From a virus: a stretch of 64,000 bases of DNA. The notes under the pieces are model-generated. The model saw nothing but the letters and a program-made list of their open reading frames with translations, ran no database searches and was not told where the DNA came from. Position numbers and translations under genes: made by a program. Location of the stretch: IMG/VR virus record IMGVR_UViG_3300009081_000012, positions 12,982-76,981 of that record; one strand, written 5' to 3'. Positions within the stretch are counted from its first letter, which is position 1, and the number at the start of each line of letters is the position of its first letter. Below are positions 12,745-45,908 of this stretch, piece by piece.

Positions 12745-13263
12745 ATGGCAACGATAACAATAATTTTATATACGTTGGTTATGTTAGCTATAGGTTTAGT
12801 AGCAGGGGCTAAATTATATAAACGAAATGAAATAAAAAACAATGTAACAAATAATGTGGTAAAAAAACCGTGGGGAGGATACACAGTAGTTGATTATGGA
12901 AAATCATACAAAATTAAATTATTAGGAATAATCAAAGGACATCGTTTATCACTACAATATCATCATCAACGTGAAGAACTTTGGGTTGTGCTAAAAGGTA
13001 CTGCTACGATACGGCTTGGTGAAAAAATGTATACGCTGAAACCTAAAAATTCATTTTTCGTGGCAAAAAGAGCATTACACAGAATAGAGAACAGACACGA
13101 TGAGCTGTTGATTATATTAGAAATTCAAATAGGTGATTATTTAGAGGAAGACGATATAGTAAGAGTACAGGACGATTATGAAAGAGATAGTAAAACAAAT
13201 GAAGAGAAGACATCAACAAAAAAGGAAAAACTGAATACCGTAGTACCAATCGATTTAATTTAA
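12745..13263 (+). CDS. Cupin of the mannose-6-phosphate isomerase type II (ManC C-terminal) family with an N-terminal TM anchor
   Basis: KPWG, LSLQYHHQREELW, HRIEN, EIQ.G.YLEEDDIVR.QDDY.R. Confidence 0.9.
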   Translation: MATITIILYTLVMLAIGLVAGAKLYKRNEIKNNVTNNVVKKPWGGYTVVDYGKSYKIKLLGIIKGHRLSLQYHHQREELWVVLKGTATIRLGEKMYTLKPKNSFFVAKRALHRIENRHDELLIILEIQIGDYLEEDDIVRVQDDYERDSKTNEEKTSTKKEKLNTVVPIDLI

Positions 13264-39465: not shown

Positions 39466-39993
39466 ATGCAAAAAGTTTATGATTTTGTTGAGGAACGTTC
39501 TGAAGAAGATAAGGAATATGAAGAATTTATATTGAAAGCTGTACCAATAGAGTATCAAGCGCCATTTTGGAAAGTAACATATCCATTTTTAAGAAGTAAT
39601 GTGTTTACACAATGGATAACACAATCAAAAGCACAAAGTTGGATGAGGCTATTTAGTTGTACTATCAGAGCAGACATGAACAACAAAATAGCTTCATTTT
39701 TATATAAAAAATATTATTTAGGCAAACACAAAATAGTGGCGAGATTTACTCAAGACGGTTTAGCTCAGTCTCTTGGATATAAAGATAGAAGAGGCGTAAA
39801 TAATCACATAGTTAAACTTGAAAAGGAAGGCGTAATAAAAGTCATACCAGAAAAATGGAATAATAGATATATAAGGGTGTATGATTTTGGAACCTGGTAC
39901 GAAGTCGATAATACAAAAATAGAACGCTTGTATTTTGACTCGGTAATGAGAAAAAATATAGGTGAATCTGTACTAAAAGAGTTAGAAGGATAG
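39466..39993 (+). CDS. Winged-helix DNA-binding protein, possibly a replication initiator
   Basis: TQDGLAQSLG...R.V..HI..LE.EG.I.V HTH pattern. Confidence 0.6.
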   Translation: MQKVYDFVEERSEEDKEYEEFILKAVPIEYQAPFWKVTYPFLRSNVFTQWITQSKAQSWMRLFSCTIRADMNNKIASFLYKKYYLGKHKIVARFTQDGLAQSLGYKDRRGVNNHIVKLEKEGVIKVIPEKWNNRYIRVYDFGTWYEVDNTKIERLYFDSVMRKNIGESVLKELEG

Positions 39994-40009
39994 GTGTCAA
40001 AAATAAGCC

Positions 40010-40054
40010 ATGTCCACAAAATTTGGACATCGATGTCCACAAAATTTGGACATC
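40010..40054. repeat. Tandem pair of a 22-bp palindromic site
   Basis: ATGTCCA-CAAAATT-TGGACAT(C) twice, period 23 bp, followed by an AT-rich tract. Confidence 0.9.
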
Positions 40055-40433
40055 CTATATAATAGAATAGATAACACTAGAGAATAGAAAACAGTATACT
40101 AAAGTATACAGAAATTTCTTTTTTAATAAAATAATAAAGAAAGCTTTAACAGAAAAATTTGGAGTGAGAAAAACGATGGTTAGTGATATTGACATTTATG
40201 TTGCCAAAAGAAAAATGAGACTTAAAAATTCAAACTACTGTTTGAGCTTTATTTCAACCTTATGGAAAGGTGAGGTTGTTATGTGCTCTTTTGACAATTT
40301 ACAGAACAAAATTAGTAGTTTATTTAGTATCCAAACATTTGATGAAGAAAGTTTTTTACAATTAGAAAATGTCATAAAAGAATTTATCGATGAATTGTCA
40401 TATAACAATACACAAAAAAATTAATAAAACTAC

Positions 40434-40461
40434 TTGACATAGAAAATAAAATGATTATATT
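40434..40461 (+). promoter_or_regulatory. sigma70-type promoter
   Basis: TTGACA-N16-TATATT. Confidence 0.75.
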
Positions 40462-40517
40462 TGTATTTATGAACGAGTAGTGTAGTGTGATTCTATAATA
40501 ACAACAGGATAAAATGA

Positions 40518-41708
40518 ATGAAAAAATTTTTTTTACAATTTTATAGAGATGAACCTTATTTATATAGCAATGATATGACTACAAATTTTCTTAATGGTTT
40601 GTCATTTGTATGGAATAAAATAAAGAACGATGGTGAAATGGTTTGGAAGCATGTAGATGATGAAACACCGTTTACCACTGATGGTATCATATATGCGTCT
40701 GTGTGGTATACAAAGAGTTTAAAGCTTATGCATTCATGGGCAAAACAATTTCCAGAGTTAGAGATAAATGTTGGAGGTCCTGCTGTTTTGCATTATGATC
40801 CAACCATAGGTAAAGAGCTTCCAAATTTCCATTTTACACGCGAAAAGGCTGAAGATTTGTTTTGTGATGGAATAGTTTCAGATTGGAATATAGAGGTTCC
40901 AAGTACCACTAAACCGATAGGGTACAGTGTAGCCATAATAGATGGTTATGGTTGTTATTGGGGAAGATGTCGTTATTGTAAAAGAACAAACAATGTTAAA
41001 TATAGAAATATAGACAAAGTTCCAGTAATAAATAATCCAAATATAAAATACATATGGATGCATGCTTACTCTATGTCTCCTAATTTAATAAAGAAACTAT
41101 ATCCAACATTCGAGAACAGAGATGATGTTAATTACGCCACATATATTAGGGGCGACAAAGAAGTGACTAAAGCCTTGGCAGACACTATACCTAAAATGTC
41201 ATTGGATACAAAACATTTAGGTTTTGATGTTGGAATAGAATTTCCGTCTGATAAAATATTACAATATATGGACAAAGGAATAACTGTTAATGAATATTTG
41301 GATTTTATAAAACTAGCTTCCGAAAATAATATAAGACTCCATTTTAATTTTATAGTTGGTTGGAGACATACTGGTGCAGATGATGTAAGAAGTGTGGATT
41401 ATTTTCTAAATAGCTTGTCAAAAATTTCTAAACCAAACACCATATCTGCAAATATATATCCATTGTCAATAGTTCAAGGTAGAAAAATAATGGAAGACTA
41501 TACCACAGACGAATTAGAAGAGATACAAACCATTTTTAATACATTTGTAGGAATGCCAAAATTTAATAAAGAACAAATTGTTTTAGATCAAGAAATTATA
41601 AATTTATACAACTCTTTTCCATTTTTAAAAGTGTATGACTTTGCTACAACACGTGCCAAATGGCGTGAAAACAATAAGAATGAGCGTCTTTTTGTAGGAG
41701 CTATATAA
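40518..41708 (+). CDS. Radical SAM protein (B12-binding class-like)
   Basis: VGGP, GCYWGRCRYC (CxxxCxxC), GIE...D.IL..M.KG. Confidence 0.85.
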   Translation: MKKFFLQFYRDEPYLYSNDMTTNFLNGLSFVWNKIKNDGEMVWKHVDDETPFTTDGIIYASVWYTKSLKLMHSWAKQFPELEINVGGPAVLHYDPTIGKELPNFHFTREKAEDLFCDGIVSDWNIEVPSTTKPIGYSVAIIDGYGCYWGRCRYCKRTNNVKYRNIDKVPVINNPNIKYIWMHAYSMSPNLIKKLYPTFENRDDVNYATYIRGDKEVTKALADTIPKMSLDTKHLGFDVGIEFPSDKILQYMDKGITVNEYLDFIKLASENNIRLHFNFIVGWRHTGADDVRSVDYFLNSLSKISKPNTISANIYPLSIVQGRKIMEDYTTDELEEIQTIFNTFVGMPKFNKEQIVLDQEIINLYNSFPFLKVYDFATTRAKWRENNKNERLFVGAI

Positions 41709-41771
41709 AGCTAACAATATAAATAACAGTATTAACACTAATAACAATAAGAAAAGTAAAAGGAGAATTAA

Positions 41772-42356
41772 ATGAGCGTACCGTATGTTATAGAAAAGGG
41801 AAAGGATAATCAGGAACGTGTTTATGATCTTTATTCGAGAATGCTTAAAGATAGAATTATCTTTATTAGAGGTCATTTTGACGCTGATATGGCTGATGCT
41901 GTAGTTGCACAGCTTTTATTTTTGGAATCCGTTGACAACTCTGCTGATATTTTCATGTATATAAATAGCCCTGGTGGCGAAGTAACTGCCATGTATGCCA
42001 TCTACGATGTTATGACATATATCAAACCTGATGTTGTTACGGTTGGTTTTGGTGTTTGTGCTTCGGCAGGTTCTTTTATTTTAGCTGCCGGCACCAAAGG
42101 TAAAAGACATGCATTACCAAACTGTGAGGTAATGTTGCATGAATTATCCGGAGGTTCTGGTGGTAAATTTAATGATATAAAAGTAGGTTATGAACACACA
42201 GTAAAGATTTATGAAAGAATGATAAACGATTATTCTAAATTTACAGGACAAGAAGTTGAAAAAGTTAAAAAAGATTTAGAAAGAGATTTTTATATGTCTT
42301 CTGAAGAAGCTAAAGCATACGGTTTGATTGATGCTGTGCATATAAATAGAGGTTAG
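41772..42356 (+). CDS. clpP: ClpP protease subunit
   Basis: YDLYSR.LKDRII, QLLFLE, YINSPGG, ASAGS (Ser), MLH, ERD. Confidence 0.96.
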   Translation: MSVPYVIEKGKDNQERVYDLYSRMLKDRIIFIRGHFDADMADAVVAQLLFLESVDNSADIFMYINSPGGEVTAMYAIYDVMTYIKPDVVTVGFGVCASAGSFILAAGTKGKRHALPNCEVMLHELSGGSGGKFNDIKVGYEHTVKIYERMINDYSKFTGQEVEKVKKDLERDFYMSSEEAKAYGLIDAVHINRG

Positions 42357-42967
42357 TGGTGATATATAATAAAAATATTCCTAATAAAAAGAATAGATTA
42401 CTAACACCAAACGGTCCTAGAGATATACAAAGAAGACAGATGCTTGATGCACAGTCTGATATTGTAGAAGGTCTTAAATCGCAAGTAGTTTTATTACAGG
42501 AACAAGTTAACAAAAGTTTATCATCAGTCAATTCTGATGGACGTTATACTGCGGAACAGGTTAATGAGGCTGTTATTAATGCAGTTAAGTCAGAAGTAGA
42601 TGCTTTAAAAGCTAAATACGAATCAACAATAAGAGAATTAACAAATGAAAATAAAATATTAAAAGAAACAAATCTTAGGCTCACTAGTAATGTAGCTGGT
42701 AACAGCAACATAACAGACGAACAGCTACAAAAAATGTTATCTACGGCTGTAGCTCAGCTTACTGAAAATAAAAAAGCCGATGTTGTTGTTGAAAACAGCA
42801 GACCAAAAATAGAAACTGTTTTTATAGATCCTTCAGATCATAAATCTGCTAACGGAGTAGAAACACACATAATTGTTAAAGAGGATTCATCCGCTAAGGA
42901 AAACATGAACAATAAAATTAATAAACTAAAGGGTATTTTAGGGTCGTTACCCAAACAAAAAATATAA
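42356..42967 (+). CDS. Coiled-coil protein, candidate actin adaptor
   Basis: Heptad-rich middle, RP..E.VFIDP, C-terminal amphipathic KINKLKGILG; directly upstream of the actin gene. Confidence 0.6.
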   Translation: MVIYNKNIPNKKNRLLTPNGPRDIQRRQMLDAQSDIVEGLKSQVVLLQEQVNKSLSSVNSDGRYTAEQVNEAVINAVKSEVDALKAKYESTIRELTNENKILKETNLRLTSNVAGNSNITDEQLQKMLSTAVAQLTENKKADVVVENSRPKIETVFIDPSDHKSANGVETHIIVKEDSSAKENMNNKINKLKGILGSLPKQKI

Positions 42968-43017
42968 GGCAATAGGAAGATACTATGGATGCTTTGTGGT
43001 TCAAAGGAGGAACACAA

Positions 43018-44016
43018 ATGGGAAAAAGAATAGGAATCGATATAGGTACAAATATGATTGTAGCTGCTTATGCTGATGAAAATGAAACACCAATATTTAA
43101 AATGCAAAGGGATGCTTTTTATAGAATTATCCCAAAGACTGAGGTTAATAGAAACAGTATAAGAATTTCATTGGATAAAAGAGGCGCCAGTTATATTGTA
43201 GACACCGATGGTTCGTTTATAATTGTAGGCGAGGATGCGCTTGAGATAGCTATAGAAAGAAACGATAAGGCACAAAGACCTATGCAAAGAGGAGTGATTT
43301 CACCAAAGGAAAAAGCTTCTTTACCTATGTTAAAACTCATTATAGAGAATCTTATAGGACTTGGTTCTGAAGGTGATGTGTGTATATATTCAGTTCCAGG
43401 AAAACCGATAGATGCCTCATTTGATATTTCATATCATACAGAAATGATGGGTTTATATCTTAAACAGATGGGCTATAATGCACAGCCCATAAACGAAGCT
43501 TTTGCAATAGCTTTATCAGAACTTTTAGATGATGGTTTAACAGGGGTGTGTATATCATACGGTGCTGGTATGACAAATGTGGTAGTAGTGCATGAAGGAG
43601 ATCCGTTGGTTGAATTTAGTGTCACCAGAGCTGGTGATTTTATAGATTTTTCAGTAGGTAATGCTCTTGATGTATCTCCAAGTTTAGTACAGATGGAGAA
43701 AGAAGCCGGTACGGATTTGTTCAATCCTACTTCTAAAATAATGGAAGCGGTGTCAGTATATTACACGTCTGTGATTAATTACACATTACAGAATATAGCG
43801 TATGAACTAAAACAACGTGAGAAAACACTTCCTATATTTAGAAATCAAGTTCCTATAGTAGTATCGGGCGGATTAACGTTGGCAGAAGGTTTTGTAAAGA
43901 AAGTTGAAGAATCATTATTAAATGTTGAGCTGCCATTTAGGATTAGTAGTGTAAGACGTGCAGCAGAGCCTATGAAAGCTGTGGCTCATGGTTGTCTTCT
44001 TGCAGCAAGTATTTAA
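43018..44016 (+). CDS. Actin-fold ATPase, volactin-like
   Basis: GIDIGT, GEDAL, RPMQRG, INEA.A, S.GAG.TN, KE, VSGG, VA.G; start after AAGGAGG. Confidence 0.88.
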   Translation: MGKRIGIDIGTNMIVAAYADENETPIFKMQRDAFYRIIPKTEVNRNSIRISLDKRGASYIVDTDGSFIIVGEDALEIAIERNDKAQRPMQRGVISPKEKASLPMLKLIIENLIGLGSEGDVCIYSVPGKPIDASFDISYHTEMMGLYLKQMGYNAQPINEAFAIALSELLDDGLTGVCISYGAGMTNVVVVHEGDPLVEFSVTRAGDFIDFSVGNALDVSPSLVQMEKEAGTDLFNPTSKIMEAVSVYYTSVINYTLQNIAYELKQREKTLPIFRNQVPIVVSGGLTLAEGFVKKVEESLLNVELPFRISSVRRAAEPMKAVAHGCLLAASI

Positions 44017-44057
44017 CTAACCTATACAATTATAGAAGTGCTTTTTATGGAGGATTT

Positions 44058-44639
44058 ATGGCAAATTTTACAGAAGCTTACAACATAACAATGAAAAATG
44101 AAGGTGGGTGGGTAAATGATCCTACTGATGTAGGTGGGGAAACATACAAGGGGATTTCTCGTAGATATCATCCTTCTTGGATTGGTTGGAAAATTGTAGA
44201 TGAATATAAAACTAAACCAGACTTTCCAAACACAGCTTATAATGATGATAATTTAAATTCTAAAGTAAAAGAATTCTACAAGTCTACTTTTTGGGATGTG
44301 AATCTTCTAGATGAAGTAGCTTCTCAGAAAATAGCAAATGAGATGTTCGACACAGGCGTTAATATGGGTGTTGGTAGAGCTGGAAAATTTTTACAGCGCG
44401 CACTTAATTTATTAAACAAGAGTGGTACTGTTTATCCTGACATAGTTGAAGATGGTCAGGTAGGACAAAACACACTTAAAGCTTTAAACAGTTATTTAGC
44501 TTATAAGGATGAATCGTTTGTCTATAAACTTATGAATATTTTACAAGGAATGCACTACATAGAATATATGACACAGAGCCCAACACAAGAAAAATTTGCG
44601 TTTGGGTGGTTAGAACGTGTCGAATTCATAAAAAAATAA
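44058..44639 (+). CDS. Endolysin, glycoside hydrolase 108 plus peptidoglycan-binding domain
   Basis: EGG.VN...D.GGET..GI, FD..VN.G, LQ..LN, DG..G..T, GWL.RV. Confidence 0.92.
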   Translation: MANFTEAYNITMKNEGGWVNDPTDVGGETYKGISRRYHPSWIGWKIVDEYKTKPDFPNTAYNDDNLNSKVKEFYKSTFWDVNLLDEVASQKIANEMFDTGVNMGVGRAGKFLQRALNLLNKSGTVYPDIVEDGQVGQNTLKALNSYLAYKDESFVYKLMNILQGMHYIEYMTQSPTQEKFAFGWLERVEFIKK

Positions 44640-44713
44640 ATAGAGGTATTAAATCCAGCAGAACTTAAACAAATAGGCCTTTGTTCTGCGGGCCGTAAAA
44701 AGGAGATTGAAAA

Positions 44714-45502
44714 ATGATGTATAAAAACAATTTTGTAGCAGTAATAAAACATGAAGGTAGAATATTAAGAGAACGTGATGGTGGAAGTGTGTATTTACCG
44801 TTTGGAAGTGAATACTCAATTCTGTTAAAAAACAAAGACTGTAGAAAAGCGTTGGTTGAAATAGAGGTTGATGGTATTAATGTTCTAAATGGTAATAAAC
44901 TTATTCTTGGTGGTAATGAAGAACAAGAAATAAATGGTTTTATGCGTGATATGAATAAAACAAACAGATTTAAATTTATTCATAAAACAAAAGAAATACA
45001 GAATCATAGGGGTGATAGGATAGACGATGGTTTGGTTAGAGTATCTTATCAATTTGAAAGCGTCCAAAAACCGATAATTTATAAAGATCCAAATACATAT
45101 CAGTATCCTTATCCATGGACTTTTACAGCCTATTATAGTGCTCCTAATATAGGAGCCGGTGGTAGTTATAATACCAATTCAATAGCTTGTGGTGATGTGT
45201 ATGGTGGTGTGTATTCTGATTCTGTTTGTGAGTCCAAACTTAACTGCTGTTCTGTACCATGTAAAGATGAAGGGATCACCGTGAAGGGTTCTGAAGTTAA
45301 TAGTAATTATGTTTATGGTCATATTGGAACATTGGATTGTGATATTAACACAATAGTTATTCATTTGAGAGGTATGTCTGGTTCAAAGAAAACTATATCA
45401 AAACCATTAACGGTTAGAACCAAAATTGGATGTTCTACTTGTGGTAGAAAGAACAGATCTTCAAATAAATTTTGTTATAATTGTGGTACATTTTTAAACT
45501 AA
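44714..45502 (+). CDS. Conserved hypothetical protein with a C-terminal Zn ribbon
   Basis: LPFGSEYSI.LKN, C.TCG...KFC..CGT. Confidence 0.75.
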   Translation: MMYKNNFVAVIKHEGRILRERDGGSVYLPFGSEYSILLKNKDCRKALVEIEVDGINVLNGNKLILGGNEEQEINGFMRDMNKTNRFKFIHKTKEIQNHRGDRIDDGLVRVSYQFESVQKPIIYKDPNTYQYPYPWTFTAYYSAPNIGAGGSYNTNSIACGDVYGGVYSDSVCESKLNCCSVPCKDEGITVKGSEVNSNYVYGHIGTLDCDINTIVIHLRGMSGSKKTISKPLTVRTKIGCSTCGRKNRSSNKFCYNCGTFLN

Positions 45503-45518
45503 ACTATACGGTTAAAAT

Positions 45519-45908
45519 ATGCATTTAAAAGAATTGATTTATGAAAAAATAATGTTAGATGAAAAAATAGCCGAATTGGAATCTATTTTACATTATAGTG
45601 CTACTGATGTTATAACCAAAGCATTGTTAGACGCCATAGATTTGAGACAAAACAAATTATTAAGTATACATTCTGTCAACAATAAAAGTAAAATAAATAT
45701 AGGTGACACTAAAGTAGATATCAATACGGCTATAATCATACGAAATACTATACAGCAGAAGATGGATATTTTAACTAATTTAATAAATGATAACAACTGT
45801 GCTTTAGATAAACTTGAATTAATGGCTCAAAGAGATTCATATTACGAACAGGTTGTTCTTTTAAACATTGGTATTTTAAAGAATGATTTATCAATAGAGA
45901 TAGGATAA
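45519..45908 (+). CDS. Coiled-coil hypothetical protein
   Basis: M.LKEL...KI.ELE helical pattern. Confidence 0.65.
   Translation: MHLKELIYEKIMLDEKIAELESILHYSATDVITKALLDAIDLRQNKLLSIHSVNNKSKINIGDTKVDINTAIIIRNTIQQKMDILTNLINDNNCALDKLELMAQRDSYYEQVVLLNIGILKNDLSIEIG

Follow-up and report, generated by a model that had tools for sequence, protein, structure and literature searches.

What does an actin from a family studied so far in haloarchaea do in the genome of a phage, and with which protein does it work? The question is raised by a stretch of 64,000 nucleotides (nt), referred to below as the window (positions 12,982 to 76,981 of the IMG/VR virus record IMGVR_UViG_3300009081_000012), in which a gene for a volactin-family actin stands directly downstream of a gene for a coiled-coil protein. 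The answer that we regard as reasonably probable is that the actin builds a phage volactin filament and that the upstream protein is its adaptor, which would bind the cleft between actin subdomains IA and IIA by means of its C-terminal helix. The actin gene itself is located as follows.

43018-44016, plus strand: volactin-family actin gene, 332 amino acids (aa) (PF25216, 217 bits, E 5e-64)

The product of this gene matches the Pfam Volactin family (PF25216) over virtually its entire profile (positions 3-321 of 321) with a score of 217.2 bits (cut-off 35, E 5e-64), whereas the scores for MreB (PF06723; 20.1 bits, cut-off 27), Actin (20.2 bits) and Salactin (16.9 bits) were all below the cut-offs, and no Pfam family of the ParM/StbA type was matched at E ≤ 0.01. 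The first-pass annotation, made from the sequence alone, had proposed a relationship to haloarchaeal volactin rather than to MreB, FtsA or ParM, and this assignment is borne out. The segments on which it relied (RPMQ.G..S, P[MI][LI]KLIIE, MGY...PINE and TG..IS.GAGMTN) all align to the volactin ortholog of Haloferax mucosum, which is 34% identical to the phage actin over 328 residues (E 1e-64). The Haloferax ortholog scores 445 bits against PF25216, and all of the phage clades score 198-267 bits. The phage protein is a true member of the volactin family, and it is not an ortholog of VolA, the volactin of Haloferax volcanii. The PHROGs collection contained no family for either the actin or its partner, and a sequence search of the PDB with the actin yielded nothing relevant: no relative of solved structure is detectable by sequence, and no structure of a volactin is known.

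The motifs expected of an actin-fold ATPase are all in place, as the first-pass annotation had described for this 332-aa protein. Among 26 phage, bacterial and archaeal members of the family, residues G10, T11, N159, E160, S180, G182, G184, M185, N187, G284, G285 and G325 are invariant and D8 nearly so, which covers phosphate 1 (D8, G10 and T11), connect 1 (N159 and E160), phosphate 2 (S180, G182, G184 and N187), adenosine (G284 and G285) and connect 2 (G325). The phosphate-2 motif has the family-wide signature S-x-G-A-G-M-T-N, in which the usual aspartate is replaced by a serine (S180). The AlphaFold2 model of the actin is of high quality (mean predicted local distance difference test score, pLDDT, 92.3; predicted template modelling score, pTM, 0.88), and its closest solved folds are those of MreB/Mbl, MamK and BeeR (template modelling scores of 0.65-0.70 at 16-20% identity), followed by eukaryotic actin and the actin-related proteins.

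The host cytoskeleton is a known target of phages, and one may ask whether this protein is rather an actin-fold ATPase that does not polymerise, or a decoy that poisons the MreB or FtsA of the host or co-polymerises with it, so as to stop the growth of the host or alter the shape of its cells in infection. The proximity of its fold to MreB/Mbl and the missing canonical aspartate in phosphate 2 would be compatible with such a role. Nevertheless, we consider it quite unlikely: sequence similarity to MreB is limited to about 20 bits, below the cut-off, a dedicated and co-evolving partner gene argues for a self-contained system, and the characterised volactin, in which the phosphate-2 serine is also present, polymerises on its own in vivo (PMC10869688).

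The position of the window's actin within the family was analysed in a quick maximum-likelihood tree. The archaeal sequences formed a monophyletic clade (Shimodaira-Hasegawa-like approximate likelihood-ratio support, SH-aLRT, 99), while the window's protein did not group with them but fell into a separate phage clade (clade A, support 99), the sister of a second phage clade (clade B, support 91). A third group brought together a copy from a huge phage, a copy from Desulfosarcina and a copy from a Neomarinimicrobiota metagenome-assembled genome (MAG), with a support of 88. The MreB of Desulfosarcina, used as outgroup, was placed on a branch of length 10, too long for rooting, and the base of the tree is unresolved; no direction of gene transfer is claimed.

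Directly upstream of the actin gene lies the gene of the presumed adaptor, whose parts are listed here in the order of the sequence.

42356-42967, plus strand: partner gene, putative adaptor, 203 aa (open reading frame, ORF; 16 clade-A orthologs at 25-39% identity)

42356-42439, plus strand: N-terminal motif Y-x-K ... GPRD-x-Q (Y4, K6, R14, P21 and R22 in invariant or nearly invariant alignment columns)

42416-42778, plus strand: long helical (coiled-coil) spacer, residues 21-141 (AlphaFold2 helices)

42797-42835, plus strand: linker motif DRP-x-[MI]-E-x-x-F-[IV]-DP (R149, P150, F156, D158 and P159 in invariant columns)

42887-42949, plus strand: C-terminal basic amphipathic helix, residues 178-198, with the core K-I-N-K-L-K-G-I-L-G (predicted actin-binding tail)

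A homolog of the partner precedes the actin gene directly in all clade-A loci with enough sequence, so that the expected synteny of the coiled-coil gene was indeed found. Identity among the partners is limited to 25-39%, against 62-79% for the accompanying actins. In the AlphaFold2 model, a disordered N-terminus of the partner is followed by helices at residues 21-56, 66-115 and 121-141, and a disordered linker connects these with a last, C-terminal helix (residues 178-195), in agreement with the original description of a 203-aa coiled-coil protein with an amphipathic helix at its end. Regular secondary structure is absent from residues 1-20, of which the first ten have an average pLDDT of 52; the conserved N-terminal motif is a candidate cargo- or regulator-binding peptide. 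The spacer varies widely in length among the orthologs, with large insertions and deletions in alignment columns 100-250, and the tail conforms in clade A to the consensus K-[VI]-x-K-L-[KR]-x-[LIM]-[LM]-G. No second protein with a clear tail motif was found in this phage. The partner matched no Pfam family above cut-off (only a weak match to the Taxilin coiled coil, 22 bits), and it has no transmembrane helix, no match to PF23600 and no ribbon-helix-helix (RHH) or other DNA-binding family. Its neighbours in the protein atlas were generic coiled coils only, below 0.9.

The relation between tail and actin was addressed by a controlled prediction of the complex, for the window's pair only, from an actin alignment of 26 rows and an alignment of 16 rows for partner residues 145-203. 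The interface scores (ipSAE, the interaction prediction score from aligned errors) were 0.64, 0.64 and 0.67, versus 0.02 for the best control; the calibration mark for such scores, reached by 58 of 80 solved complexes and by 2 of 110 mismatched pairs, is only rough, since our own alignments were used. The runs share at least 61% of their contacts, with a partner pLDDT of at least 56. In these models, the tail is docked in the hydrophobic IA/IIA cleft of the actin. The predicted actin interface comprises residues 107-112, 166-174, 193-195 and 320-332, which belong to helices of IA, the helix that connects IA with IIA, a hairpin of IIA and the C-terminal helix. On the monomer model, subdomain IA contributes helix 96-113 and the C-terminal helix 321-331 to the contact surface, and subdomain IIA contributes helix 160-168 and hairpin 193-195. 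The tightest predicted contacts connect M184, K187, I188, K190, L191, I194 and L195 of the partner with actin residues 166, 170, 174, 193-194, 328 and 331. The DRP motif is absent from the confident contacts. This cleft corresponds to the site at which the C-terminal helix of ParR binds ParM, and to that of the barbed-end binders on eukaryotic actin. The groove residues are fixed within each clade and differ between clade A, clade B and the archaea (L, Y and Y at position 166; L, E and A at 170; L, Y and F at 174; L, I and V at 328), a pattern that parallels the clade-specific tails and is suggestive only.

The tail motif extends beyond clade A. In the distant phages the overall similarity of the partner is lost, yet an ORF ending in the same kind of motif adjoins the actin gene. 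The upstream protein of clade B is about 100 aa long, with an N-terminal transmembrane helix and the end I-s-s-s-[IV]-N-K-L-K-N-M-K-G. Altogether, a tail-bearing upstream protein was detected in 49 of 56 distinct loci that belong neither to clade A nor to the archaea (mostly clade B), 43 of these proteins being small and six longer. One of the longer forms, a clade-B variant, contains a signal peptide, a trypsin-like domain (GDSGG), a transmembrane helix and the tail, in that order, which places the tail in the cytoplasm, alongside the actin. Upstream of the haloarchaeal volactin gene, a protein of about 300 aa is encoded that bears a four-transmembrane DUF7139 domain (PF23600, 151-160 bits), and its cytoplasmic tail includes an internal motif, V-D-x-x-V-x-G-L-K-x-L-K-G-G, as well as a C-terminal one, G-phi-x-x-R-phi-[KR]-x-x-L-G. 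The core of the motif, phi-x-[KR]-phi-[KR], was defined from clade A alone and scored in the last 18 residues. It was present in 15 of 17 upstream ORFs from clade A, in 46 of 54 from the other non-archaeal loci (mostly clade B) and in 39 of 62 from the haloarchaea, versus 37 of 949 (3.9%) and 57 of 2754 (2.1%) background ORFs of the same loci. When profiles were compared with each other, the clade-A tail matched the clade-B tail (E 0.005), and the clade-B tail region matched the internal haloarchaeal motif (E 3.2e-4, probability 39%).

A short basic helix of this kind may also be viewed as a membrane-targeting helix of the MinD or FtsA type, in which case the partner would reside at the membrane and would meet the actin elsewhere or never. 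The basic, amphipathic motif shows a single hydrophobic stripe, the partner of the window's clade has no transmembrane helix, so that access to the membrane would need such a helix, and the haloarchaeal C-termini (G-phi-x-x-R-L-K-x-x-L-G) look similar to the membrane-targeting sequence of MinD. We rate this explanation as rather unlikely. The clade-B and haloarchaeal partners possess one to four transmembrane helices, and for them a helix of this type would be superfluous; hydrophobic residues are scarce in the clade-B tail, with three to four among numerous lysines; and the complex model places the tail helix in the actin cleft with the scores given above. The two roles of the tail, actin binding and membrane targeting, are not mutually exclusive.

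The likeness of the predicted docking site to the ParR site on ParM raises another alternative, namely a type II partition system like ParMRC, in which the actin would separate phage or plasmid-prophage genomes via a DNA-binding adaptor on a centromere. In the same genome, about 54 kb upstream (L172:1879-2104), some ten iterons with the core CATTATACCGAAATAAT directly precede a 78-aa ORF, a candidate RHH gene, which would be in line with such a system. This gene was not found, however, in five related phage records, including the one of 238 kb that is 87% complete, and the 78-aa ORF has no Pfam match. Moreover, no repeat array adjoins the actin module (39900-45600), the adjacent partner lacks an RHH or other DNA-binding family and is a membrane protein in the other clades, and the actin matches no ParM-type Pfam family. 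The modules of the contig are of the lytic type, and no integrase or plasmid genes were seen on it (about 28% of the genome). A partition system is thus very doubtful in our estimation. The RHH/iteron locus had been considered as an equivalent of ParR/parC and was rejected: the repeats are real, and the gene is not co-conserved. As an observation in its own right, the roughly ten CATTATACCGAAATAAT direct repeats, which are situated before the start of the window (L172:1879-2352), fill the space before the 78-aa ORF and look like an operator or a centromere-like array.

The reading that we favour, a volactin filament with a cleft-binding upstream adaptor, also has to be weighed against several results that speak against it. 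The ipSAE value is the model's own confidence, and part of it may be learned likeness, because ParM-ParR and other actin-peptide complexes have been solved. Across the family, the conservation of the groove does not exceed that of the protein as a whole, and the test was not significant, 89% of randomly drawn residue sets being as conserved. The Fisher p values for the enrichment of the motif (about 1e-18 to 1e-48) are inflated by kinship within the clades, and the motif is short, basic and amphipathic, resembling the membrane-targeting helices discussed above. Among the haloarchaeal sequences, the clade-B tail is matched best by the internal motif and not by the extreme C-terminus, and the profiles of the clade-A and haloarchaeal partners display no detectable similarity. 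Finally, the change from aspartate to serine in phosphate 2 may bear on the ATPase chemistry.

The partner and actin genes are part of a larger arrangement, of which the remaining elements are the following.

41772-42356, plus strand: gene of a ClpP protease of the cell type, 194 aa (233 bits against PF00574, over positions 2-179 of the 182 in the profile)

43001-43008, plus strand: Shine-Dalgarno sequence of the actin gene, AAAGGAGG (direct reading of the sequence)

44058-44639, plus strand: GH108 endolysin with a peptidoglycan-binding domain (PF05838, 75.6 bits; PF09374, 50.3 bits; phrog_315, endolysin)

The clpP, partner and actin ORFs are tightly coupled on the plus strand. The ATG of clpP is preceded by the Shine-Dalgarno sequence AAGGAG, and its stop codon, TAG (42354-42356), overlaps the GTG of the partner (42356). 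An alternative start of the partner, the second GTG at 42359 (202 aa), provides a better fit both to the spacing of an AGAGG sequence and to the ortholog alignment. The gap between partner and actin is 50 nt. A strong AAAGGAGG is positioned 7 nt ahead of ATG 43018, and this spacing identifies ATG 43018 (332 aa), rather than ATG 42985, as the start of the actin. No credible terminator was found between clpP, partner and actin, the sole terminator-like site on the plus strand being inside clpP. The promoter scan returned 26 sites versus 32 expected from shuffled sequences, and no promoter is claimed. Co-transcription of the three genes, as originally suggested, is therefore supported by the overlap of clpP and partner, the 50-nt gap and the lack of a credible intervening terminator, although this support is indirect. 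A ClpP gene is located upstream of the partner in four loci (L002, L003, L004 and L006), and this linkage is confined to the window's clade. This ClpP may also act as the prohead protease: in the PHROGs collection its relatives go under the label "head maturation protease", and the genes from the portal to the major head protein include no further recognisable protease.

Other genes flank this arrangement on both sides. Directly upstream of clpP, a 396-aa protein is encoded (40518-41708) with a weak radical-SAM match (20 bits, below the cut-off), and its gene is preceded by the site that, within this region, comes closest to a sigma-70 promoter (40434-40461, 11 of 12 matches). Further upstream, immediately after a gene that ends at 39993, the 22-nt near-palindrome ATGTCCACAAAATTTGGACATC occurs in two perfect tandem copies (40010-40054), a possible operator or bidirectional terminator. 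A 262-aa protein with a zinc ribbon at its end (44714-45502) and a 129-aa protein (45519-45908) are encoded after the actin and endolysin genes. The zinc-ribbon protein recurs downstream in four clade-A loci (39-59% identity) and the 129-aa protein in three (29-52%), and they might be members of the actin module.

The setting of the module is a large phage. The record that carries the window is linear and 76,981 bp in length, with a CheckV completeness of 28%, and genes for the large terminase, a portal-like protein and the major head protein are present in the window. A related phage record extends to 237,910 bp at a CheckV completeness of 87%, from which it follows that the source phage is of jumbo size. 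The GH108 endolysin with its peptidoglycan-binding domain, encoded directly downstream of the actin, identifies the host as a bacterium. The terminase is at most 28% identical to those of cultured phages (the best being Bacillus phages and the Microcystis phage MaeS), and for this reason the host cannot be deduced from it. Contigs of clade B were binned in MAGs of Flavobacteriales, Alphaproteobacteria and Chitinophagia, which are weak hints at hosts and concern a clade other than that of the window. Several studies of freshwater sediment and soil yielded metagenomes with near-identical DNA, and no RNA dataset is among the sequencing runs listed. Tubulin (PF00091) was detected neither in this phage nor in four relatives; the records are fragmentary, so this is weak evidence. 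At the beginning of the window (positions 1-4000), the G+C content is 0.39-0.42, versus about 0.32 elsewhere, the GC skew is reversed and the genes are on the minus strand; this region is probably an early module of different orientation.

The size of the family was estimated in two ways. A word-indexed search retrieved 705 relatives of the actin, including more than 120 clusters with an identity of at least 69%, and an exhaustive profile search yielded 1,486 clusters (50% identity) at E ≤ 1e-3, 512 of them at E ≤ 1e-30. At least 315 IMG/VR contigs contain a relative, while the curated phage collection has two relatives only, both from uncultured huge phages (485 kb and 595 kb). In the GTDB, 316 species genomes carry a relative, nearly all of them Halobacteria, with top matches of 34-39% identity; since these matches are almost all from Halobacteria, the haloarchaeal volactin orthologs are the nearest cellular relatives. 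The few other GTDB matches are short bacterial MAG contigs that resemble phage DNA and the chromosome of Desulfosarcina variabilis. The description of volactin as a family characterised in archaea thus holds insofar as it has been studied so far in haloarchaea, but the phage members are both more numerous and more diverse.

Several members of the family deserve separate mention. The chromosomal gene of the cultured sulfate reducer D. variabilis (L019:4584-5990, 267 bits) has a gene for a 137-aa coiled-coil protein directly upstream, and its neighbours are cellular (URO-D-like, DUF3419 and methyltransferase genes), i.e., the locus is not a prophage. A clade-A phage volactin of 702 aa (P0123) is interrupted within the phosphate-2 motif, between I-S-A-S and G-A-G-M-T-N, by an intein-like insertion of about 370 aa with C...HN-C boundaries and a homing-endonuclease-like middle. 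About 20 of 150 listed representatives are 680-800 aa long, with the match split at position 178-206. Near the actin of a clade-B-related phage locus (L007:9410-11674), a 754-aa ORF exhibits, by eye, Hint/intein-like and homing-endonuclease-like features. Further architectures (P0121, P0143, P0163 and P0128) include a protein of 729 aa with two volactins in tandem, proteins of 512 and 908 aa with long N-terminal extensions that are acidic or coiled-coil, and a single polypeptide of 384 aa whose actin domain is preceded, at a distance of about 45 residues, by the partner-like motif D-R-V-R-K-L-K-S-K-G. Either a natural fusion or the truncation of a gene at the edge of a contig could account for the last of these.

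We propose the following mechanism for the pair. In the infected cell the actin would polymerise into ATP-dependent dynamic filaments, like the volactin of H. volcanii. Positioning of phage DNA or capsids, or reshaping of the host, as put forward in the first-pass annotation, are speculative roles of such filaments. The upstream protein would serve as an adaptor; its coiled coil probably mediates dimerisation and provides a spacer, the length of which varies. The hydrophobic face of its tail (M184, I188, L191 and I194/L195) would be inserted into the IA/IIA cleft of the actin, and the N-terminal and DRP motifs would attach a cargo or a regulator. The ancestral role of the pair was probably to tether filament ends to the envelope, because the tails of the clade-B phages and of the haloarchaea sit on membrane proteins. 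In the window's clade, a soluble coiled coil with translational coupling to ClpP would have taken the place of the membrane anchor.

Among the known systems, the closest is that of H. volcanii, in which dynamic filaments of volactin (VolA, HVO_2015) span the cytoplasm and only their tips touch the membrane (PMC10869688). The factors that bind volactin were called unknown in that paper, and neither phages nor the neighbouring gene are mentioned (PMC10869688); none of the papers in the searched library that contain the word volactin appears to treat phages. The phage actin shares with VolA the full-length Pfam family, the S-x-G-A-G-M-T-N signature and an upstream gene for a protein with a basic amphipathic tail. 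Unlike VolA, it is encoded by a bacterial phage, belongs to a separate clade and is linked to ClpP, and its partner is a soluble coiled coil instead of a four-transmembrane DUF7139/CdpA-like protein. The role of VolA in cell shape is unlikely to carry over to the phage actin. The haloarchaeal DUF7139 protein upstream of volactin corresponds to HVO_2016, a CdpA-like four-transmembrane protein, the gene of which adjoins HVO_2015; a common function has been hinted at, and volactin was weakly enriched in a CdpA pull-down (PMC12126565). The haloarchaeal and clade-B partners resemble CdpA (HVO_0739) and HVO_2016 in their combination of a membrane domain with a cytoplasmic tail, whereas the window's partner lacks a membrane domain and has no detectable homology to them outside the short tail.

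Pairs of an actin and an adaptor on mobile elements are an established theme. ParM/ParR/parC of plasmid R1 is likewise composed of an actin-like ATPase and an adjacent adaptor, and its adaptor helix would be the counterpart of the tail predicted in the IA/IIA cleft; the phage module differs in that it has no ParM-type family, an adaptor gene upstream rather than downstream, no RHH domain and no adjacent centromere. In the prophage CGP3 of Corynebacterium glutamicum, the adaptor AlpA links filaments of the phage actin AlpC to viral DNA (PMC4446434). The window's pair is comparable as a phage-borne actin-like protein with a co-encoded adaptor, but AlpC/AlpA belongs to a temperate actinobacterial prophage, and here the actin family is another one, the phage is jumbo and apparently lytic, and the adaptor is without a recognisable DNA-binding domain. 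MamK/MamJ and MreB/RodZ include the bacterial actins with the closest solved folds, which work via adaptors or anchors, at 16-20% identity and with other adaptors and binding sites. To our knowledge, PhuZ is the one polymer of jumbo-phage origin that has been studied well. It constitutes the tubulin spindle of nucleus-forming jumbo phages (PMC4244570, PMC8314001). The likeness of phage volactin to PhuZ, as a putative dynamic cytoskeletal polymer of jumbo phages, is one of functional analogy only, PhuZ having a tubulin fold and phage volactin an actin fold. Signs of a phage nucleus were not found here, although no search aimed at them was made.

What is new here is the connection to the haloarchaeal DUF7139/CdpA-like proteins, the statistics of the tail motif, the protease-fused variant and the figures for the size of the family. 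A protease is tied to the module twice, as ClpP and as the fused trypsin-like domain, which hints, from gene content, at a connection between filament and proteolysis. More tentatively, volactin and its tail-bearing anchor may constitute an ancient, mobile two-gene cytoskeletal cassette of jumbo phages, a few bacteria and haloarchaea, with the short basic helix as a portable filament tag; we regard this as possible, with the greater weight on the side of doubt. If it were true, the helix would have been grafted onto membrane anchors, an envelope-spanning protease and a ClpP-coupled soluble coiled coil; the phages would be the main reservoir of the family, with the cell-shape actin of the haloarchaea maybe of viral origin, or the reverse; and HVO_2016 would be the missing membrane anchor of the volactin filament tips.

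The interest of the finding lies in the abundance and the cross-domain spread of the volactin-adaptor pair. The description of volactin in 2024 concerned a single archaeon, and the predominance of phages changes the view of the origin of the family. The tail motif and its predicted contact with the cleft name candidate residues for the tethering of volactin tips, in the phage pair as well as in HVO_2016/HVO_2015. If the proposed mechanism is true, jumbo phages would possess, beside PhuZ, a second and independent cytoskeleton in this widespread actin, relatives of which occur in at least 315 IMG/VR contigs.

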